A stretch of 64,000 bases of DNA from Bacillota bacterium (GTDB lineage Bacteria; Bacillota; Limnochordia; DTU087): NCBI GenBank assembly GCA_012518315.1, contig JAAYSL010000084.1, forward strand, positions 20,336 to 84,335. Direction: 5' to 3'. Below, piece by piece: positions 3,400-48,220 of the stretch. The position numbers were made by a program, and so were the translations under genes. The notes beneath the pieces were generated by a model. It was given only the letters and a program-made list of their open reading frames with translations. It had not been told where the DNA came from and made no database searches. How positions within the stretch are numbered: position 1 is the stretch's first letter; the number at the start of each line of letters is the position of its first letter.

Positions 3400-4017
3400 T
3401 TAATGCAGTCTTCGCAAAACCCCGATGACCTTCCCTAAGATCTGTGCATTAGTAGTGATAATCGGCTCATATAGGGGGTTCTCCGGCTGTAGCCGGATAT
3501 GCTCCGGCTCTCTAAAAAACCGCTTAACAGTGGCTTCATCCTCTAGAAGCACTACAACTATGTCCCCGTTAATGGCATCTGGTTGCTGGCGGACCACGAC
3601 GTAATCACCATCAAGAATTCCTGCCTCAATCATGCTATCCCCCTGGATGCGCAACATGAAAGTGGCCTCGTCAGAAGCAAAATCCCGGGGTAGAGGAAAA
3701 TAGTCCTCAACATTTTCTACCGCTAGGATAGGCTGTCCCGCTGTAACATTACCCACCACTGGTACAGCAATGAGGTCTTTCATGATCTGGCTTTCGGCCA
3801 ACTCATCGTCAAGAACCTCGATAGCTCTGGGCTTAGTGGGATCCCGTCGGATATATCCCTTGCTCTCCAAACGTCTCAAATGCCCATGTACGGTTGAGCT
3901 ACTACGCAACCCAACAGCATCACCAATCTCCCGGACAGAGGGTGGGTACCCCTTCTCCCTAACTTGTTGTTTAATGAACCCCAGTATTTGACTTTGTCGT
4001 TCCGTGAGCTCTTGCAT
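3400..4017 (-). CDS. lexA: LexA repressor (SOS regulator, S24 peptidase)
   Basis: N-terminal wHTH ([29 protein letters not shown]) and C-terminal S24 autopeptidase (GDSMIEAGI..., VKRF). Cheo-type boxes lie upstream. Confidence 0.92.
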
Positions 4018-4101
4018 AGGTGGCTCCCTCCCGAAGCTCTAACTTAGCATACACGTTTCAAACATACCGCTTCTATTATAGCACGGCAACAGCCTTATTG
4101 C

Positions 4102-4114
4102 AAACGTTCGTTCG
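4102..4114. promoter_or_regulatory. LexA (Cheo-type) box candidate, lexA-proximal
   Basis: AAACGTTCGTTCG; the reverse complement CGAACGAACGTTT fits CGAAC-N4-GTTCG with one mismatch. Confidence 0.5.
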
Positions 4115-4275
4115 CAGTGATATATAGTCTTTGTCGAGCTTGCCATCGGTGTTGGAGACTGAGGATTGTCGGGAGGAGGCATCGCGTCAGTCTCGCTTCG
4201 AGGTATGACAACGTATACGAAAGCATTTTCATGACACACAAACGACGACATTCACGGATTCGCAGCTTGTAGCAC

Positions 4276-4289
4276 CGAACGCATATTCC
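4276..4289. promoter_or_regulatory. LexA (Cheo-type) box candidate
   Basis: CGAACGCATATTCC versus consensus CGAACNNNNGTTCG, one mismatch. Confidence 0.55.
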
Positions 4290-4308
4290 AAAATTCCATA
4301 GATCACCC

Positions 4309-4337
4309 TTGACGGAAACAACTGTTCGTGGTAAAAT
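4309..4337 (+). promoter_or_regulatory. sigma-A-like promoter of the yneA-like gene (TTGACG-17-TAAAAT) with a LexA box in the spacer
   Basis: -35 TTGACG at 4309-4314 and -10 TAAAAT at 4332-4337 with a 17-nt spacer. The spacer contains GAAACAACTGTTCG (Cheo-like, 4314-4327). Confidence 0.55.
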
Positions 4338-4364
4338 CAAACCAGGCATACATCTGTTCGCAGC

Positions 4365-4376
4365 GGACAACTGTTC
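4365..4376. promoter_or_regulatory. LexA (Cheo-type) box candidate
   Basis: GGACAACTGTTC versus GAAC-N4-GTTC, one mismatch. Lies between the promoter and the RBS of the yneA-like gene. Confidence 0.45.
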
Positions 4377-4392
4377 TTGGGAGGGCTAAGAC

Positions 4393-4767
4393 ATGATGGA
4401 AAGGAATCGTGCTCAGACACGCTGTAGGAAGACAATCACGCTGTCACAGGAAAACCCGTCTCATTGCGGCACTGTACGTCAAAGCCGACAAACCCGCGGC
4501 ATTGGCTACATTCGCCTTAAGCAATTGCTGGTCCTAGTGATTATATTACTCGTAGCGACACCGATCTTTGCAGCCATGATATCCAATAATGTGCCGGAGC
4601 CAAATTACGAGACCGTGGTTGTAAGTCAAGGAGATACGCTATGGACCATTGCCAAGAGAGTCAAACCAAGAACCGATCCCAGGAAAACCATCTACGAGAT
4701 TAGGCAGCATAATGAGCTGAAATCGGTAGATCTAAGGCCTGGCCAGACTTTGTTCATACCGATCTAG
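4393..4767 (+). CDS. yneA: SOS-induced cell-division inhibitor, YneA-like (TM plus C-terminal LysM)
   Basis: Divergent from lexA and preceded by LexA boxes. Single TM (LLVLVIILLVATPIFAAMI) and LysM motif (VVVSQGDTLWTIAKRV...PGQTLFIP). RBS GGGAGGG. Confidence 0.7.
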   Translation: MMERNRAQTRCRKTITLSQENPSHCGTVRQSRQTRGIGYIRLKQLLVLVIILLVATPIFAAMISNNVPEPNYETVVVSQGDTLWTIAKRVKPRTDPRKTIYEIRQHNELKSVDLRPGQTLFIPI

Positions 4768-4803: not shown

Positions 4804-4926
4804 CAGATGATTTCTAAGTGAGCTGGAAGCAGTGCTGGAGGCTAGTGGCCAATGATTAGAGGCTATCGGCCGTTTCCAATTGCCTTTTAGATGGTTTTAC
4901 AGTCCATCTGGAGGCTATCAGACCCG
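4804..4926 (+). repeat. Degenerate direct copy A of an about 110-bp segment of the xer N-terminal coding region
   Basis: Roughly 88% identical to 5405-5514, with a 6-bp indel and several substitutions. An in-frame stop shows it is non-coding. Confidence 0.8.
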
Positions 4927-5003
4927 GGACGATAGATAGAAAGTCATTCATGCATTGTCATGGCGGCCAGGTGTGGCGAAAATGGTCGGATGACGAGCAC
5001 GCC

Positions 5004-5031
5004 ACTTCGCATAATATATCTTCTGCGAAGT
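5004..5031. other. dif-like tyrosine-recombinase core site (11-bp inverted arms around a 6-bp AT-rich centre)
   Basis: ACTTCGCATAA-TATATC-TTCTGCGAAGT sits inside an 11-bp perfect-stem palindrome (5001-5034). It matches 19/28 positions of the Bacillus dif site as I recall it (ACTTCCTAGAATATATATTATGTAAACT). It lies 200 bp upstream of the xer gene. Confidence 0.5.
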
Positions 5032-5228
5032 GGCCTTGGAGTCACAGAGGTGAAGACTTTAAAAAGCCAAGGTTCGCCTATAGATAATAAATGTGAATGA
5101 ATCAGTCGGCTGCTCCAGAGATACTCCCCCTGCTGCCTCCTTCCTTGCTCTTCCCCCAGGTTTACAGGAAATGCTTATTGGCTGCTGGAATAGATACATA
5201 GAACCATACGTTATCGGAGGTATCACTT

Positions 5229-6269
5229 GTGCTGGACTTTGACTTACAGGTAGAAAGATTCATTGCCGCTCTAGGCATTAATAAGAGCTTGAATACCGCA
5301 AAAGCCTATAGATCTGACCTAAGACTTCTTAAGTTACATCTAGTCTTAGCCCGGTGTCCTTGTGTTATCCCGCCCCGAAGCAAAAGCGCTTACAGTGAGC
5401 TGGAAGCAGCGCTGGAGGCTAATGATCAGAAGCTATCGGCCGTCTCTAATCGCCTTTTAGATGGTTTTACAGTCAATCTGGAGGCCATCAGACCCGATGA
5501 TTTGGTGGGATATTTTCTCTTCCTGAAAGAGACCCAAGGCTATGCCCAGACCACGATCAACCGCAAGATCGTGGCTGTGAGACGTTTTTTCAAGTATCTT
5601 TTCCAACACGAACTGCTACCGGATCCTTCTCTGATCTATGATCTGGAAACCAAGACTATCCATCGTAATGAAGCACCTTTACATCTAACTGCCGAGGAGG
5701 CTTTTCACTTTCTCGATACCGTGCGGCGTCATGGATCTGAACGAGACTATGCCATGTTTCTCATCATGCTTAGTATGGGGCTCCGAATTGGCGAGGTTGT
5801 ACAGATGAATGTCGACGATATTGGGCGAGACACTCGGTTCTACCGAGTCACCGGCGGCAAAGGCGGTAAGAATCGGCCTGTACCGGTTCCCGGGGCTGTA
5901 CGAGAAGCCGTAGCAAGTTATAAGCGAGTTCGGCCTAGAGATAAAGCTAAGGGTCAGCACCGCCTGGCTTTGTTTCTCGGCAACAGATATACCAGGATTA
6001 CACCTAGGGCTGTTCAACAGAAACTAAAGGAATATGTGGAGCTAACTCAGCTACCGGAAAGCAAAAAGCTGATGCTCACGCCCCATAAGCTACGACACAC
6101 CTTCGCCACGGCTCTTTATCTAAACGGTGAGGATTTGCGAACCCTGATGCGGCTTTTGGGCCATGAGAACATCGCCACGACCACGATTTATACACATGTA
6201 GATGCTGAGAAATTGATCGCTTCTCTGGACAAAAATCCTTTTGCGAAGGTAGGACAAGAAGAGCACTGA
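5229..6269 (+). CDS. tyrosine site-specific recombinase, XerC/XerD family
   Basis: C-terminal catalytic signature HKLRHTFATALYLNGEDLRTLMRLLGHENIATTTIYTHV and an N-terminal SAM-like domain (NTAKAYRSDL). GTG start after GGAGG. Carries an about 50-aa insertion in the N-terminal domain. Confidence 0.85.
   Translation: MLDFDLQVERFIAALGINKSLNTAKAYRSDLRLLKLHLVLARCPCVIPPRSKSAYSELEAALEANDQKLSAVSNRLLDGFTVNLEAIRPDDLVGYFLFLKETQGYAQTTINRKIVAVRRFFKYLFQHELLPDPSLIYDLETKTIHRNEAPLHLTAEEAFHFLDTVRRHGSERDYAMFLIMLSMGLRIGEVVQMNVDDIGRDTRFYRVTGGKGGKNRPVPVPGAVREAVASYKRVRPRDKAKGQHRLALFLGNRYTRITPRAVQQKLKEYVELTQLPESKKLMLTPHKLRHTFATALYLNGEDLRTLMRLLGHENIATTTIYTHVDAEKLIASLDKNPFAKVGQEEH
5405..5514 (+). repeat. Copy B (in-gene original) of the 110-bp segment duplicated at 4804-4926
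   Basis: Seen by direct sequence comparison. Encodes ...SELEAALEANDQKLSAVSNRLLDGFTVNLEAIRPDD within Xer. Confidence 0.8.
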
Positions 6270-6515: not shown

Positions 6516-9500
6516 TCATACCTGCTTTCCAGATAAAACCTCTATTCTAGCCGACGCCAAGCCGGAAGGAAGCGTTTTCCCTTCTAGCGTATTTGCGGAG
6601 GTGTTGGTAACTGCCAGAGTAACTGTATTACTGCTATCATGACATAGGTCCGAAACGTCAAACACATATGGCGCCCACAGGCGACAACCTGCTTCTTCCC
6701 CATTGACCCAAGCTTCCACCACTCCATCGTGGCCATCAGCTGTCAGCATGAGCCGTTTACCTTTCCAACTCCCGGGCAGATCAAAGGTCGTGCTATAGGT
6801 GCCCGTGCCAGAGTAAAAGGGGTAGCCGGAATCTGTCCAAGAACCCACGCCTAGCTTGGTTCTAGGAGCACCTAAACTGTAAGTGGCAGTCCCCGATTCC
6901 GTATTCGGTGAGGAGTCAGCCATACAGACACTAAAATCCCCCACCACCTTTAGCTTATCGACAATACCTCCCCATTCAGAGTCAACCTCTATTTTGACCG
7001 CCAGTTGATTCACTCCCTGGCGGACATATGCCTCCAATGGTACGGCAAGGATGTCACAATCCAAAGACGAAGCCTTGAGATTATCGCTGCTTACTAGGCT
7101 GCCATTGACATAGAGCTGGTATTTGCCCAGAAAACCATCGATAAGCATCTGGAGTCTATTGGGCAGATGCTGTAAATCTATCTTAGTGCGGTACCACAGA
7201 GTAGTTGGTGTAGGTACATCGCCTACATAGCTCCGGACGACTCTCATCCAGGGACCGTTGGTGGCCCAAACCCACTCCGTATCATCGAACTCCGGCAGAT
7301 GATATCCCTTGGATAAACCTTCTCCCTTAGGATCAATTCCTAGCCGCCAACTATCGATGAGCAACACATTATCTCCGCTCAGGGTGAAGTCCCATTCGCC
7401 CTTCAGATCGATGGGTGTCAAAACGTCGTTTGGCTTCGAGAATTCTGAGGACTCAATCTCCAGCTCCGGTTGTCCTGGTCTCACCATAAGAAAGATTGCC
7501 TGATGGGGCCACATATCTAGTTTAACCGTCATTTCGCTGGTGTCCAGGGCACTAACCACCCCATTCGCCGTCTCACCGGTTTCGGGGTTCCAGAGCTCCG
7601 GATGTCCAATCTTGCTTAGGGTGACCTGGATTGTTTTGTTATTGGCAGTAGTATTGACCAAAAAGTACAGGTCTAGATCGTCAGCTTGCCTGTGCAGGCA
7701 GAAAATATCCTGATCATCAATGTGCACTCTCCGATCGACTGCTGCGTCGAGCCCTTGAGCAAGCAGCTCTTCGGGATGGCTTTTACTAAGCCCGCCTGGG
7801 CTCTGCAAGAAACCCACATAGCCGCCTCCGGGGTGCGTTCCGGCATGCAATATAGCTCGATTGGCGCAGTCTTTTGAATCCCCCACTACTCCCGCCCCTT
7901 GGCTAATGACGGCAGCTGGACTTGCCTGTCCTAAATCAACGTTAAAGGTTTCTCGGACAAAATCCAGTACCTTAGGGTCACTAGCTACCACATCCGAATC
8001 CTCTGGTAGCATTGTGCAGGCTAGAAGACTGCCTCCCTCATCGAGAAACTCCTGCAGCTTATTTACTGTGTCCCTCTTTAGCATGCTCGTAGCAGGTAGG
8101 ATCAGAAGCGAATAACGATTTTGTCCTATAGACATAGCTCCATTTTCTACTATTGTCTCACTGATGGTGTCTTCGTCTATGTAATCAAAACCATAGTGGA
8201 GACGTAGTAGGGCATCAGTGAGATACGCTAGGTCAGATTCAATGATATCTGCCAAGGGGGTGCGTACCTGGGAAGTGTAGTTTTGCCAGTAGCTTCTTAC
8301 GGGATATAAAATCGCCATATCGGCCACAGGTCTACCGGTACTAAGAAGATAGCTTAAGCGGGAAATGTATTCGCTAAACTGCCCATAGTACTTCCACCAG
8401 GACTGCTGGTAGAACTGACAAGGTGGCCAATCTCGCTTCCTGTCCCCTTCAATACTATAATGTCCACCATGGGGGTTAAAGAGATTTACACCAAGGACGT
8501 ATTCCCAATCAGCCATGGTTTTCATATCCAGCATGGTGGTTGCCCACCCAAAACCACCGATGGATTCACACAGTACTCGTTTACTACCCACCTGGTGAGC
8601 AACAGAACTGGCTGCTTTGAGGGCTACATGCAGATCGGGCCTTTCCCTTGATCCCTTGGGGGAGAAAATATGGTCTACACCGACGATATCAAAGTGTTTG
8701 AGGTGGGTCATGACATTGCCTTCAGTGCGGGTTGCCAAATGGAACCATTCTTCAAACAGAAGATGACCTGTGAAAAGCAGATCATGATCATGACACCATT
8801 GCCTAACCCTCTCATAGAACACTGTGGACAGACGCTCTGTGAGCGTATTCCAGAAATCATATCTTACTATTCTTGAGTTGGTATCGACATCGTAGAACAG
8901 TGAGGCTAACCGTGACAAGAGATCATAGCCATTCTCAGTCTGAAAGAGCTCTCTCATCCCTTCTGTCCAGGGAATAAAGCCATTTTCCGGGTTAATCTGG
9001 TAATAGTGCATGGCTGGCTCGTCAGTATAGAACCCAGGGATGACATCACCAAAGTACTCCCCTACCCGCTTCGCATAGTGCTCATGGGTATATTCTATGA
9101 ACTTATCGACAGCCTTGGGGTTTAAAGCATCTATATACCATGGAGTCTGCTTCTCGATGAAGTGTAGTACTGCCCATTCACCCTCGGGAACCTCCCAAGC
9201 CATGATCATCGAGTCAAAGGAAATATATTGATTGAGATTAATCGCTCGGCTCCAGTTTTTCCTCCCGCTTTCAAGTGGTACTGCCCAGGCAGCAATAATC
9301 CTCCCACCATCAGTATCTAGATACCGAGCATCAGTTGTCTTGAGAAAGCTATAACGGGAGCCTATCTGATGGGTCTCGACTAGCTGTAAAAGTCGCTGGG
9401 TAAGCTCAGGGTGATCCTCACATACCTTAAGCCCAGCGGTCCCGCTAGGCCAATTATACTCATCGTAGATCCATAGCCTCATTCCGATTTTCTTAGCTTC

Positions 9501-9719
9501 CTTGCAGACTATCTCTATACAGTCAAACCATTCATCTGACAAATATGGCGTAATCAAACCATAGCGGCCATGGATATATATATCCGATATCTGCTTATCC
9601 CGAAACTCGTGTAACTGTCGAACCAATTCCTCTGGTCTGAGCCTAGAGTTCCACATCCAAAAGGGCTGAATGGAGTAATCCAGTGATGGTTGCTTGAATT
9701 CTGTCCCATGGAAAATCAC
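6516..9719 (-). CDS. large cytoplasmic glycoside-hydrolase-like protein (1067 aa; candidate GH106 alpha-L-rhamnosidase type, family assignment tentative)
   Basis: Uninterrupted 3.2-kb ORF. N-terminal PFWMWN...WIYDEYNWPSG motif block typical of a large glycosidase family, and a C-terminal galactose-binding-like beta-sandwich region. No signal peptide. Confidence 0.75.
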   Translation of the reverse strand: MIFHGTEFKQPSLDYSIQPFWMWNSRLRPEELVRQLHEFRDKQISDIYIHGRYGLITPYLSDEWFDCIEIVCKEAKKIGMRLWIYDEYNWPSGTAGLKVCEDHPELTQRLLQLVETHQIGSRYSFLKTTDARYLDTDGGRIIAAWAVPLESGRKNWSRAINLNQYISFDSMIMAWEVPEGEWAVLHFIEKQTPWYIDALNPKAVDKFIEYTHEHYAKRVGEYFGDVIPGFYTDEPAMHYYQINPENGFIPWTEGMRELFQTENGYDLLSRLASLFYDVDTNSRIVRYDFWNTLTERLSTVFYERVRQWCHDHDLLFTGHLLFEEWFHLATRTEGNVMTHLKHFDIVGVDHIFSPKGSRERPDLHVALKAASSVAHQVGSKRVLCESIGGFGWATTMLDMKTMADWEYVLGVNLFNPHGGHYSIEGDRKRDWPPCQFYQQSWWKYYGQFSEYISRLSYLLSTGRPVADMAILYPVRSYWQNYTSQVRTPLADIIESDLAYLTDALLRLHYGFDYIDEDTISETIVENGAMSIGQNRYSLLILPATSMLKRDTVNKLQEFLDEGGSLLACTMLPEDSDVVASDPKVLDFVRETFNVDLGQASPAAVISQGAGVVGDSKDCANRAILHAGTHPGGGYVGFLQSPGGLSKSHPEELLAQGLDAAVDRRVHIDDQDIFCLHRQADDLDLYFLVNTTANNKTIQVTLSKIGHPELWNPETGETANGVVSALDTSEMTVKLDMWPHQAIFLMVRPGQPELEIESSEFSKPNDVLTPIDLKGEWDFTLSGDNVLLIDSWRLGIDPKGEGLSKGYHLPEFDDTEWVWATNGPWMRVVRSYVGDVPTPTTLWYRTKIDLQHLPNRLQMLIDGFLGKYQLYVNGSLVSSDNLKASSLDCDILAVPLEAYVRQGVNQLAVKIEVDSEWGGIVDKLKVVGDFSVCMADSSPNTESGTATYSLGAPRTKLGVGSWTDSGYPFYSGTGTYSTTFDLPGSWKGKRLMLTADGHDGVVEAWVNGEEAGCRLWAPYVFDVSDLCHDSSNTVTLAVTNTSANTLEGKTLPSGLASARIEVLSGKQV

Positions 9720-10348
9720 CTAACAAGCCTCCCTTAGTGTATTACATCAAATTGACACTTACACAGCACGATTAACCGGGTTTCATTCCGAAATTACTGA
9801 TTCCGTCCCCAGAAGGTTACCAGACCGGCGTCACTGTAGCCTCATCTTCACCGCCTATGGAAACGTTTCCTGTCGCGGGACATATTTAGATTAAGTTAGA
9901 TGCACCCCTCCATCCAATTATGCCATCTATAACACGTAAAGCAGTAGCAGTTGATGGCTTGTATCATCGATGATCGCCTCAAATATACCTTCGCATGGAA
10001 GCTTTGTCAATCATAGTATGCTAATGGGACATGTTCCGGAAACTACCAAGAACCCTGCAAGAGATTAGGTTAGTGTAAAATTCCTGTAGGGTGGCCGGTA
10101 GGAATATCTAACCAGTGAATAGAAAAGAGATCTCACTGCCATCGCAAACGGCAGAGCTCAAGGCTCAAGCACTGAGATCTCTTAATGGAAATGACTCAGC
10201 ATATGGTGAATATGTTCCTGCAAGTGGGTGAGAAGGCTTTGGGCAAACTTGACAGGAAGATGCACACTACCTATACTGAAGGTGCTGGAAAGATACTGGT
10301 ATGAGCTTAACCGCCGCCTTGGCCTGTCGAGAATAGGAGGCGGTTTTT

Positions 10349-11446
10349 GTGTTGTTATGTTCCTATTCCCCACCTGTATCATTTCGTAGCAATCTTAGGC
10401 ATAGAGTCGGCCTTTTTCTGATGCTCATCGGACTTAGTCTACTTATCAGCGGGTGTTTTGGAGGCCTTGGCCAAACCGTATCATATCCCCCACCAGCACC
10501 TAAGGGTCCCACCGGTGGCGTGGCTGTAAAGGCTTTACTCATCTCCGATAGCGGAGATGGGCATACCATCGGCCGAGTGATAGCCACCCTAACGCGAGGT
10601 AGCCAAAGAATAGAGCACAACCTGGTGGTAGATCTAGATAGAATGGTAGCTTCAGGCAACTTATCCAAGGTTCTTATCGGCACCTGGAATCTGCGTGTCG
10701 ACGTCTATAGCAAACGAGACGAACTACTCTACACAGGATCAACTAGTGTGTTGATTGAGGAAGGCAAAACTATTAGCATAGAGCTTCAGCTTGGAGCCGC
10801 TCCCGGCACACTGATCATGGTGCTAGATATCAGTGATTTTGACAGCTATGAGCTCATCAAGGGTAAAATCATCATCGGCACCGGTGAGCAACCTGAGCTG
10901 GTCAAGGAGTTTACAAGAGGAGAAGACTCCCTGCTCACAGTCACTATTGATGAGCTAGACCCCCGGAGTCACGATCTGCGAGTGGAACTGTATAAGAACA
11001 CTTTCCACTCCTACAATCGCATCTATCAAGGGCCGTGGGAGGTTATTGCTATTCAGCCGGGCAAGATCCTGGAGATGAGTTGGCATCCGGCTTGGGGGTG
11101 TATTGAGGTCATCGGTGTGATTGACGCCCCTCCCCCCTCCCCTAGCGATGTAAGTGCAACTTTGCAGGATGACAGCATATTCATAGCTTGGACTGCTGTA
11201 AGACCTGTAGAGGATGATCTGGAAGCATATCTAGTATATGCGCAGCTTCATGCTTTTACTGGGTTTCAACTTATCGATACGGTACCCAAATCTGCGACCT
11301 CGTATTCGTATCGACCAGATACTTCATCTTATCCTGCCGGGGTGAGCATCCCCATCCAAATTGCCGTATCGAGCCTAGATGCCGGAGGAAACGAGAGCAG
11401 TCGTAGTAGCCCTGTGATAGTACCATGGCCCTCTGCCGGGAGTTAG
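10349..11446 (+). CDS. lipoprotein with C-terminal Fn3/Ig-like domain
   Basis: GTG start after AGGAGG. Lipobox LLISGC. Beta-rich C-terminal region (SIFIAWTAV...YLVYAQ) resembling an Fn3 domain. Confidence 0.6.
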   Translation: MLLCSYSPPVSFRSNLRHRVGLFLMLIGLSLLISGCFGGLGQTVSYPPPAPKGPTGGVAVKALLISDSGDGHTIGRVIATLTRGSQRIEHNLVVDLDRMVASGNLSKVLIGTWNLRVDVYSKRDELLYTGSTSVLIEEGKTISIELQLGAAPGTLIMVLDISDFDSYELIKGKIIIGTGEQPELVKEFTRGEDSLLTVTIDELDPRSHDLRVELYKNTFHSYNRIYQGPWEVIAIQPGKILEMSWHPAWGCIEVIGVIDAPPPSPSDVSATLQDDSIFIAWTAVRPVEDDLEAYLVYAQLHAFTGFQLIDTVPKSATSYSYRPDTSSYPAGVSIPIQIAVSSLDAGGNESSRSSPVIVPWPSAGS

Positions 11447-11580
11447 TGTCTTTAAGCGATTCGTCACAGTTTACCTAACAAAGCCAATTTCCTAATCGCC
11501 TAGAGAAAAGCGGTTCTTAGGGCAGGCGTTTTTACCTTTTGTCTCGAAGTAATTATGTCGGAGTGTGGGGAGGTAAAGCG

Positions 11581-12642
11581 ATGACAGCACGTGTAGGAGT
11601 TCCGAGATCCCTAGCATACTATGCATTTTACCCACAATGGAAGACGTATCTTGAGGAGCTTGGAACGGAAGTTGTACTAAGTCCCCCTACCACAAAAGAT
11701 ATCATAGATCAGGGCATCAAATATACGGTGACTGATGCCTGCATCCCCATAAAGGTGTTCCATGGGCATGTTGCTGCCTTGATCGGACAGGTGGACTATA
11801 TTCTGATTCCCCGATTGGTCAGCATCGATGGCGATGCTACCCTTTGTCCCAAATTCCTTGGGCTCTCCGATATGATCAAAGCCTCAATACAGGGTATCCC
11901 TCCTCTTTTGACACCCAGGCTGGATATTCGGGACGGACGGTTTGCCCCCATGAAGGCCTGGCTACGGGTTGCCAAAAAACTGGGAGCGGGCCGCCAGAAG
12001 GCCTGGCTTGCGTATCGGAAAGCAGTGCAAGTAGGACAATACTATGAGGCACTATTGGCCAACCATATGCTTCCTAGCGAAGCCATGTTAGCTGCAGATA
12101 AATGGCGGGCATCCTGGCCAAAGAAGCGGCCATTGAGTTTGGCTGAGGCCAGAAGCGGTATTGCCTCCGCCAAGGCATCGAAGACGCCAATGGAAGCCAC
12201 TGCAACCAGTAGGCAGGTCCAACTGGCCGTTGTTGGCTATCCATACATGCTGTACGATGACTATGTCACCTGTGGGTTGCTCACGAATCTGAAGAGCTTG
12301 GGTGCCAATATCTTAACACCTGAAATGGTTCCGGCCAAATGTCGGAAAGCACAGGCCAAGAAGCAACCCAAATACTTGTTCTGGCACTATAGTAATCAGG
12401 TGATACGGGCCACATATCATTTCTTCGAAGAAAAAATGATCGATGGCTTGATTCATGTGACGGCTTTTGGCTGTGGACCTGATGCCATGGTGGATAAGCT
12501 GCTTGAACTAGATTGCCGCAAACAGAATCGGTTACCCTACCTTTCATTATGTTTAGATGAGCATACAGGTGTAGCTGGAGTAATGACCCGTCTCGAGGCC
12601 TTTGTAGATATGTTAGTGCGTAGGAAGGGTGATTTGCGGTGA
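11581..12642 (+). CDS. DUF2229 'CoA-substrate-specific enzyme activase'-associated protein, paralog 1
   Basis: ATG 11581 after GGGGAGG. C-terminal block VTAFGCGPDAMV...LCLDEHTGVAGVMTRLEAFVDML is typical of DUF2229. Confidence 0.7.
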   Translation: MTARVGVPRSLAYYAFYPQWKTYLEELGTEVVLSPPTTKDIIDQGIKYTVTDACIPIKVFHGHVAALIGQVDYILIPRLVSIDGDATLCPKFLGLSDMIKASIQGIPPLLTPRLDIRDGRFAPMKAWLRVAKKLGAGRQKAWLAYRKAVQVGQYYEALLANHMLPSEAMLAADKWRASWPKKRPLSLAEARSGIASAKASKTPMEATATSRQVQLAVVGYPYMLYDDYVTCGLLTNLKSLGANILTPEMVPAKCRKAQAKKQPKYLFWHYSNQVIRATYHFFEEKMIDGLIHVTAFGCGPDAMVDKLLELDCRKQNRLPYLSLCLDEHTGVAGVMTRLEAFVDMLVRRKGDLR

Positions 12643-13736
12643 AGATAACTTTCCCACACATGGGAACTTCATGGATAGGCTTCAAGACTCTGATCGAAGG
12701 AATAGGCCATGAGGTAGTGCTTCCCCCTCCCCCCACCAAACGCACATTGGATCTTGGCACCAAATACGCACCGGAGTTTGCGTGCCTCCCCTTTAAGGTA
12801 CTCTTGGGCACATATTTAGAAGCCATTGAGTTGGGCGCTGATACGATTATCTCTTCCGGTGGGGTTGGCCCTTGTCGAGCTGGGTACTATACGCAACTGC
12901 AAAAGCGCATCCTGCAGGAACAGCTCGGCCACGATGTTAGGGTAATCACCTTTGAACCACTTAACCGCAACTGGGTAGGAACCTATAGGATTTTTCGGGA
13001 TTTGATTAGGGTTAACCTGCGAGAATTCATAGGGTTACTCTGGCTTACCTGGCAAAAGCTGCTGGCCCTAGATGCCATCGAACGGGAAAGTCACCGGGTA
13101 CGACCATTGGAGGTTAATACCGGATCCACAAGCCGCGTAGTATCTAAGGCGTTTGCCGATATCGACAAAGCTGATTCAGTCAAGAAAGTCAAGGATGTGA
13201 CTAGAGATAATCTAGAGAAGATGAACAGCCTTCCCCAGGATGCCCACCGACATCCTCTCAAAGTTGGTGTGATTGGGGAGATCTATGTGGTGCTAGAACC
13301 TTTTGTTAATCTCGATGTTGTCGAGACATTGGGTCATATGGGTGTGTACGTGCACCGTTCCATATTTCTTACTGATTGGACCATAGAAAACACGGTTCTA
13401 GATGCGTTTAGGGTGGAGGGTGAGATGAATATCAAAAAGGCCGCCCGACCCTATTTGCCGGAGATGATTGGTGGTCACGGTCAGAATAGCATTGGTGAAA
13501 CCATTCTTTATGCCAAGAAGGGCTATGATGGTGTAGTTCAGTTGGCCCCCTTTACTTGCATACCGGAGATAGTTGCCAAGAGCATTATTCCTAAAGTCAG
13601 TAGGGACTATAACTTACCGGTTCTAACCTTGATGCTAGATGAGCAGACGGGCAAAGCCGGTATCAGTACTCGTTTAGAGGCTTTTGTGGATCTATTGGCT
13701 ATGCGGCGGGTACGACTCGGAGGTGAGATTGCTTGA
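12639..13736 (+). CDS. DUF2229 protein, paralog 2
   Basis: GTGA start/stop overlap with the upstream gene. Paralogous C-terminal block LAPFTCIPEIVA...LMLDEQTGKAGISTRLEAFVDLL. Confidence 0.7.
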   Translation: MKITFPHMGTSWIGFKTLIEGIGHEVVLPPPPTKRTLDLGTKYAPEFACLPFKVLLGTYLEAIELGADTIISSGGVGPCRAGYYTQLQKRILQEQLGHDVRVITFEPLNRNWVGTYRIFRDLIRVNLREFIGLLWLTWQKLLALDAIERESHRVRPLEVNTGSTSRVVSKAFADIDKADSVKKVKDVTRDNLEKMNSLPQDAHRHPLKVGVIGEIYVVLEPFVNLDVVETLGHMGVYVHRSIFLTDWTIENTVLDAFRVEGEMNIKKAARPYLPEMIGGHGQNSIGETILYAKKGYDGVVQLAPFTCIPEIVAKSIIPKVSRDYNLPVLTLMLDEQTGKAGISTRLEAFVDLLAMRRVRLGGEIA

Positions 13737-47911: not shown

Positions 47912-48220
47912 AACAAAACCCCTCATCCGATAAGGGACGAGGGGTTACTCGCGGTACCACCCTATTTGTGTGACGCAAAATCACACCACTTTAATCAGAC
48001 ACCTTTATCTATGAGCATAAAGCTACAGACAGTCGAGGCCTGCTTCCTTATAACGGTGGAAGTCTCCGTTGTTGCCTACTTCAAGTTCAGCAACACGGCT
48101 CCGGGGAGAACTTCACCTCTACCTTACGTACCGGCTTACACCTAACCCGGCTCTCTAGAACGTTTCAGCAGAACTACTTTTCCCCTTCATTGCCTTTTTA
48201 CAGACTGCTTGCATATGTTA
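47912..48220 (-). ncRNA. T-box riboswitch leader upstream of aroG
   Basis: Minus-strand leader contains the T-box core AAUAGGGUGGUACCGCGAG (plus coordinates 47948-47967), immediately followed by a terminator hairpin AACCCCUCGUCCC-UUAUC-GGAUGAGGGGUUUUGUUAUU (47912-47946). Stem I shows a K-turn/GA motif with AGUA box (GGCAAUGAAGGGGAAAAGUAG), an AG bulge (CUAGAGAGCC) and a distal loop (GGUGUAAGCC). Length about 310 nt. Confidence 0.85.

Follow-up and report, generated by a model that had tools for sequence, protein, structure and literature searches.

A 28-bp site at the left end of the window (the whole stretch of DNA analyzed here, 64 kb in length) is probably the chromosomal dimer-resolution (dif) site of its genome, and the adjacent gene probably encodes the recombinase that acts on it. 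We rate the locus as a real dif-type site with a cognate Xer recombinase, the functional pairing of the two being predicted from sequence. Arms of a single type, together with a gene beside the site, suggest that the recombinase most likely works alone, as a homotetramer, in the manner of XerS/difSL, XerH/difH and archaeal XerA/dif. The features of the locus are, in window positions:

3400–4017, minus strand: lexA (TIGR00498, 256 bits)
4101–4377, no strand assigned: five clustered LexA-box-like sequences between lexA and yneA, overlapping the yneA promoter-like site at 4309–4337
4393–4767, plus strand: yneA-like LysM division-inhibitor gene (LysM; NF010723, 66 bits, cut-off 60)
5001–5034, no strand assigned: extended inverted repeat GCCACTTCGCA...TGCGAAGTGGC, a perfect 11-bp repeat that adds GCC/GGC to the 28-mer
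5004–5031, minus strand (better orientation): dif-like core site, 28 bp, 11-6-11, unique in the 64-kb window, 22/28 versus B. subtilis dif
5059–5088, plus strand: weak promoter-like element TTAAAA-18-GATAAT (consensus scan only, 9/12 match) between the site and the recombinase gene
5229–6269, plus strand: Xer-family tyrosine recombinase gene, 346 aa, GTG start (PF00589, 1.8e-35; PF02899)

The dif-like site, its recombinase gene and their neighbors

On the minus strand the site consists of a left arm, ACTTCGCAGAA, a GATATA spacer and a right arm, TTATGCGAAGT; on the plus strand, positions 5004–5031 read ACTTCGCATAA-TATATC-TTCTGCGAAGT. The first-pass annotation of this DNA had described an 11-6-11 core with dyad symmetry at 5001–5034, and such a core is present: the 11-bp arms are complementary at 10 of 11 positions, the extended repeat contains a perfect 11-bp inverted repeat, and the first base beyond each 11-bp arm (C/G) is symmetric too. 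The same annotation counted 19/28 identities to a Firmicute dif. The resemblance stands and the count does not: against the B. subtilis dif, ACTTCCTAGAATATATATTATGTAAACT, taken from the supplement of PMC3025954, the site is identical at 20/28 positions on the plus strand and at 22/28 on the minus strand, which makes the minus strand its better orientation. Read in this direction, the site has AGAA on the left and TTATG on the right, like Firmicute dif sites, and both arms bear the TTCGCATAA/TTCGCAGAA motif. The elements that define dif sites in general, a 28–30-bp core with inverted arms of ~11 bp, a 6–8-bp spacer and an inner palindrome of the ATAA/TTAT type, are all found here.

The site occurs once in the 64 kb. 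It is also the top dif match of the window, followed by a runner-up that scores 19 and has no TTATG core. A top score of 22 was attained in 2 of 500 block shuffles and one of at least 20 in 20 of them, corresponding to a chance of ~0.4% for the minus-strand score and of ~4%, which is borderline, for the plus-strand score alone. Inverted repeats of 11-6-11 form with at least 10/11 complementary positions number two in the window versus a mean of 0.5 in the shuffles. The only comparable repeat besides the site, ACCCCTCATCC-GATAAG-GGACGAGGGGT at 47918–47945, is G+C-rich and probably a terminator stem. Taken by itself, without its relatives, the site is suggestive.

The recombinase gene begins 197 bp downstream of the site, with a GGAGG 8 nt upstream of its start codon, and its transcription is directed away from the site. 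On the other side, the stop codon of the yneA-like gene, at 4767, is 236 bp upstream of the site; both distances agree with the 200 bp and ~250 bp given in the first-pass annotation. Adjacency of gene and site has been proposed as a possible hallmark of single-recombinase Xer systems (review PMC5357621), and it is found here, at 197 bp.

The protein combines a Phage_integrase domain with a SAM-like domain. Alignment to E. coli XerD shows an intact R-K-H-R-H-Y catalytic set, made up of Arg (GLRIGE), Lys (GKGGKNR), His-x-x-Arg (HKLRHTF), His and Tyr (LLGHENIATTTIYTHV). Among solved structures, E. coli XerD (97 bits) comes nearest, followed by archaeal XerA (5hxy and 4a8e, 88–89 bits). Among NCBIfam models, the protein scores roughly alike against XerC (184.5 bits), XerD (180.1 bits) and XerA (168 bits), and it reaches 117.6 bits against XerS. 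The curated cut-offs are 335 bits for XerC (TIGR02224), 329.6 for XerD (TIGR02225), 220 for XerA (NF040815) and 267 for XerS (NF003462); the protein misses all four equivalog tests and is therefore a member of the Xer subgroup that is none of the XerC, XerD, XerA or XerS equivalogs. Its earlier designation as a XerC/D-type recombinase holds as to the Xer family; the cut-offs of the XerC and XerD families are both missed. No second recombinase or Xer paralogue was found in the 64-kb window.

A 110-bp stretch at 4817–4926 duplicates recombinase codons ~56–90 (5394–5496) at 86% identity and with a 7-bp indel, and the dif-like site sits between these two direct repeats, which are ~570 bp apart. 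The upstream copy is missing in the nearest relatives (L005, L011 and L057) and therefore represents a recent partial duplication. Right after the recombinase gene, on the opposite strand at 6516–9719, lies a gene for a 1067-aa glycoside-hydrolase-like protein with a weak alpha-L-rhamnosidase match; it is absent at the equivalent position in L005 and is therefore an insertion in a terminus-like region. Farther to the right, an assignment of the minus-strand genes at 16–23 kb to a topA-trmFO-codV-hslVU cluster with XerC was rejected; these genes are the purine operon purD/N/M/F/L.

Proximity of the site to the SOS division checkpoint had been called suggestive. The proximity is real; it belongs to a widely conserved gene neighborhood. 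A Xer-like gene, a LysM gene and lexA, often joined by a Met-gamma-lyase gene, recur together in several groups, namely Symbiobacterium-like metagenome-assembled genomes, Aedoeadaptatus (Tissierellia) and Haloimpatiens (Clostridiaceae). Recombinase, LysM-yneA-like and lexA genes are neighbors in L008, L009, L007, L130 and L131 (~10001–13700 in each), among which are Aedoeadaptatus pacaensis and Haloimpatiens massiliensis. No LexA box was found between yneA and the recombinase gene, so SOS control could reach the latter only via read-through from yneA, which is possible in the gene order of the window clade and not in that of other clades. The link to lexA and yneA is an old synteny conserved across Clostridia, with no evidence of special functional coupling. 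In B. subtilis, the resolvase-like yneB holds the same position after yneA; the association of a recombinase with the SOS division inhibitor may extend to Firmicutes in general.

Conservation and distribution of the site-gene pair

The strongest evidence against a chance match comes from conservation in other genomes. Relatives of the recombinase form a small clade at 64–93% identity, all of them from uncultured Firmicutes, and the next step down is at 38%. The site is kept in L001, L003, L005, L057, L107, L115, L008 and L009, with its arms held and its spacer variable. In the minus orientation, the sites of the window and of three relatives read:

Window: ACTTCGCAGAA-GATATA-TTATGCGAAGT
L005 (protein 89%): ACTTCGTAGAA-GATATA-TTATGCGAAGT
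L003 (protein 65%): ACTTCGCAGAA-TCCATA-TTATGCGAAGT
L001 (protein 67%): ACTTCGCAGAA-GGTTTA-TTATGCGAAGT

Two sites of the more distant P0020/P0024 clade, each upstream of the gene, read:

ACTTCGCTAAA-TTACCA-TTATGCGAACT
ACTTCGCTAAA-TAGCGA-TTATGCGAAAT

In relatives at 64–89% protein identity, the site is the sole conserved part of the intergenic region; when the whole spacer between yneA and the recombinase gene was compared by blastn, the ~30 bp of the site alone aligned with L001 and L003. The AGAA/TTAT asymmetry of the arms, as in B. subtilis dif, is retained in this clade, and TAAA replaces AGAA in the respective arm of the clade at 38–44% identity. Fixed arms, a free 6-bp spacer and a maintained AGAA/TTAT asymmetry are the signature of a tyrosine-recombinase core and not of a terminator.

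The clade at 38–44% identity (P0020/P0024, represented by L008 and L009; 68% G+C) and the window clade are the nearest relatives of each other. In the former, lexA and yneA again adjoin the locus, and the L008 and L009 sites upstream of the gene conform to ACTTCGCTAAA-N6-TTATGCGAA[CA]T. Between the two clades, the unit of site and gene is inverted relative to lexA/yneA, which argues that both travel as a module. Linkage of site and gene is retained in L003, L005, L008, L009, L057, L107 and L115. In L001, the site (196–223) and the gene (10001–11026) are 9.8 kb apart; the intervening genes (esterase, NAD synthase and ABC transporter) replace the lexA/yneA flank, placing the synteny break exactly at the site. 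A second site near the L001 gene was not found, even at 15/28, and no site was found near the orthologous recombinase genes of L007 and L130.

To survey the distribution of the site, we scanned one genome per species with the pattern ACTTCGYNNAA-N6-TTATGCGAANT, which returned at least 120 loci. Those listed span Oscillospiraceae, Peptostreptococcaceae, Erysipelotrichaceae, Chloroflexi, Patescibacteria and other groups. A Xer-like gene is located within the same 8-kb block at 87 of the 120 loci listed, and ~75 of these 87 genes start at most 600 bp from the site and read away from it; two matches per assembly were seen in only three assemblies among the loci listed. The pairing of a dif-type core site with a Xer-family recombinase gene, proposed from the window alone, is thus a recurrent one, observed in relatives at 38–93% protein identity and in many other phyla. 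Representative site-adjacent recombinases score 210–240 bits against both XerC and XerD and 183–207 bits against XerA.

The bases next to the arms carry additional information. They lie outside the search pattern. Their identity varies, and the base flanking one arm is complementary to that flanking the other in 76% of the 119 distinct sites among the matches listed (A/T in 51, T/A in 30 and C/G in 10). Such concerted change is expected if one protein reads both halves of the site. At the Oscillospiraceae loci, the recombinase gene has a conserved promoter, TTGATT-17-TATAAT, directly against the site, suggesting autoregulation. TTATGT motifs enriched beside the Oscillospiraceae sites were considered as second sites and rejected, as they are part of the conserved -10/promoter region. 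Two short MWEH01 contigs, both from one metagenome-assembled genome, each stop ~250 bp beyond the site, of which they have identical copies (L032:3382–3409 and L058:3456–3483); the assembly could have broken here at a duplicated site, for example one that arose when an element integrated at dif. On C. botulinum plasmids that encode 'XerC', no clear site adjoined the gene.

A tentative extension, which we consider possible rather than probable, is that these loci represent a large, undescribed Xer/dif class in which one recombinase other than XerC or XerD, encoded beside a 28-bp dif, is the sole dimer-resolution system in many lineages. Equally tentatively, both arms of such sites would be of the 'XerC-arm' type (ACTTCGC..AA / TT..GCGAAGT), and the class might comprise many Clostridia, where it would be kept beside lexA/yneA, as well as this Firmicute lineage, Patescibacteria and Chloroflexi. 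If true, a class of this breadth could explain the unpredicted dif in Clostridium species (PMC3025954): the 2011 genome-wide prediction reported no dif for C. perfringens and C. beijerinckii and placed that of C. botulinum ~174 degrees from the skew switch (Kono et al., PMC3025954). A literature search covering the site sequence, dif in Clostridia and Patescibacteria, and yneA together with a tyrosine recombinase found no description of the module.

Terminus-like position and alternative explanations

The first-pass annotation had placed the locus near a probable terminus, and locally the window has terminus-like properties. GC skew is +0.084 to the left of the site, where the window extends for only 5 kb, and −0.079 to the right; cumulative skew is maximal at 5–15 kb, with peaks at ~5 kb and ~15 kb. 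Genes follow the same trend, with 6 of 7 on the plus strand to the left of the site, mixed strands at 5–15 kb and nearly all genes on the minus strand from 16 kb onward. Within the 64-kb window, GC skew and gene orientation converge no more than ~10 kb from the site, the apparent meeting point of the two replication arms. The skew to the left and right of the site is +0.088/−0.045 in L003 and +0.106/−0.046 in L005. Of the scan loci, 63 extend for 1.5 kb or more on each side of the site; skew is higher to the left in 47 of these (binomial p ~1e-4), and the pattern is terminus-like (+/−) in 31 and reversed (−/+) in 8. Splitting away from the site, as a control, gave 63/49. The Eubacterium yurii site falls 51.5% of the way along a 2.49-Mb scaffold and coincides with a sharp switch in skew (+0.08/−0.24). 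Both E. yurii and Criibacterium have this type of site at the skew switch and no recombinase gene within the 8-kb block.

No other dif candidate was found between −10 kb (in L005) and +59 kb of the site. The window and L001–L009 were also searched with the B. subtilis, E. coli and S. thermophilum dif sequences and a generic ATAA-N6-TTATGT pattern, and no canonical dif was found.

Several loci complicate the reading. Haloimpatiens (L131) has a perfect palindrome of this site type, ACTTCGCTAAA-TGTATA-TTTAGCGAAGT, as well as a canonical-looking dif, GGTTTACAGAT-TATATA-TTATGTAAACT, located 308 bp from the ACTTCGC-type site; in its spacer and its XerD (right) arm, the canonical-looking dif matches B. 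subtilis dif base for base. The two 28-mers, at 9506–9533 and 9814–9841, lie upstream of the lexA-linked recombinase gene; one is ACTTCGC-type in both arms, the other GTTTACA-type (XerD-arm) in both. Coexistence of the two kinds of site is thus possible. In Tepidibacter and Alkalithermobacter (L028, L034, L056, L108, L109, L117 and L125), the site again adjoins a recombinase gene; no GC-skew switch was detected within the 8-kb block at these loci, and L028 and L056 have a second recombinase gene, of 370 aa, adjoining lexA. Sites of the ACTTCGCATAAC..-type are present in Bacillus inaquosorum and in several predicted proviruses (L106:592–1598; L135, L136, L138 and L143–L146), where the recombinase is a distant tyrosine recombinase (28–34% identity) encoded amid genes with phage-family matches. 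Of 14 viral-contig matches, 7 likewise have such a site next to a distant recombinase, within prophage-like DNA, and prophages apparently use the same cassette design. We assume that B. inaquosorum has a canonical dif, as its relative B. subtilis does. The P0020 clade has four members, none from the S. thermophilum type strain; a canonical dif is listed for S. thermophilum in Kono's table (PMC3025954).

These observations bear on what kind of system the locus represents. In an ordinary two-recombinase dif, the adjacent gene would encode a divergent XerC that acts on one arm, and a XerD encoded elsewhere would act on the TTATG arm. The 11-6-11 geometry, the 22/28 match to B. subtilis dif and the conserved one-position difference between the arms (AGAA versus TTAT) fit such an arrangement, as do the name 'XerC' given by NCBI to relatives at 33–36% identity, the best NCBIfam match of the protein, which is XerC, and the E. 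yurii/Criibacterium site at a skew switch with no recombinase gene in the 8-kb block. We nevertheless consider it unlikely. The XerC score of 184 bits is far under 335 and equal to the XerD score, and gene-site adjacency is foreign to XerCD systems (PMC5357621). The TTATG arm is TTATGCGAAGT, whereas the canonical dif sites examined in the PMC3025954 supplement all have TTATGT[ACT]AA, and TTATGCGAA is wholly absent from that supplement. Furthermore, both arms and their flanking base are of one type and co-vary.

It is less probable still that the locus is an accessory cassette of recombinase and site, for instance what remains of an integrated element or an additional, specialized system, with the main XerCD and a canonical dif elsewhere. 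The side-by-side occurrence of both site types in Haloimpatiens, the like cassettes in Bacillus prophage-like DNA and in 7/14 viral-contig matches, and the Tepidibacter sites off the skew switch lend this idea some substance, and the 110-bp fragment of the recombinase gene duplicated across the site hints at a past rearrangement. However, all relatives show the locus in synteny with housekeeping genes, only one site is present, a tRNA scan around the site found no tRNA nearby, no relatives above 40% identity were found on plasmids or phages, and no alternative dif was detected within −10 to +59 kb of the apparent terminus. The same data lend no support to the integrated IMEX that the first-pass annotation had entertained: an IMEX is bounded by dif and a dif-like site that enclose foreign genes, whereas this locus has one site and no flanking pair, is syntenic with housekeeping genes to its left and right, and has close relatives on neither plasmids nor phages. 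Finally, a hairpin serving as a yneA terminator or attenuator, or a regulator's operator, is very improbable as the identity of the site. Either strand is predicted to form a stable hairpin (−26 kcal/mol, z-scores −3.6 and −4.7), the position between yneA and the next gene would suit it, and promoter-like hexamers flank the repeat; yet there is neither a T-run nor a terminator call, and no Rfam match was found around the site. The 'loop' bases GAA/TTA are conserved, only the central six vary, and the stem is without compensatory changes; the site is not downstream of yneA in L001, L008 and L009, and its pairing with recombinase genes across phyla would be left unexplained.

Proposed mechanism and comparison with known systems

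Our preferred reading remains a dif site served by the adjacent recombinase. The protein would bind two nearly identical arms of 11–12 bp, two sister sites would synapse, and strand exchange across the 6-bp spacer would, close to the replication terminus, resolve a chromosome dimer into monomers. By binding its site, the recombinase may in addition regulate its own promoter next to it, and the recombination could depend on FtsK. Chromosome dimer resolution is nearly universal, yet it has been worked out in few groups. If the recombinase acts alone on this symmetric site, a candidate dif and its recombinase are at hand for the uncultured lineage of the window and, by extension, for many members of the Clostridia, Patescibacteria and Chloroflexi. 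The module would further serve to mark the terminus in metagenome-assembled genomes and as a small recombination tool that consists of one protein and 28 bp. If a XerD partner exists, the dif annotation would be routine, and only the placement of the gene would be unusual.

XerS/difSL of streptococci and lactococci resembles the locus in having one Xer recombinase gene immediately by the site, in a terminus module (PMC1914069; PMC5357621). However, difSL is 31 bp long, with an 11-bp central region and unequal arms, whereas the window site has 28 bp in an 11-6-11 arrangement with near-identical arms, and the window protein reaches 118 bits versus the XerS cut-off of 267. In difH of Helicobacter and Campylobacter, the arms are near-palindromic and their small asymmetry orders strand exchange. 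XerH/difH likewise has a single recombinase and a site near its gene (PMC5357621); unlike in that system, the window protein scores 54 bits to XerH (5jjv) versus 97 to E. coli XerD, and the site sequence is unrelated to difH. XerL/dif of Legionellales is a recently recognized single-recombinase dif in a group once thought to be without one (PMC9765430); it belongs to another phylum.

Archaeal XerA/dif also pairs a single recombinase with a 28-bp dif, and the window protein scores 168 bits to XerA, almost the XerC/XerD level; in contrast, the window lineage is bacterial and the XerA cut-off of 220 bits is missed. With XerC/XerD-dif (E. coli; CodV/RipX in B. subtilis) the locus shares the 28-bp, 11-6-11 site with inner AGAA/TTAT and 22/28 identities, the terminus-like position and the catalytic residues. 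XerCD, however, employs two recombinases, differing arms and genes away from dif, whereas both arms of the window site resemble the XerC-side arm (cf. L. casei ACTTCGCATAA) and the protein misses both equivalog cut-offs. Most likely, the locus represents a known kind of system, Xer/dif dimer resolution, in a little-studied form.
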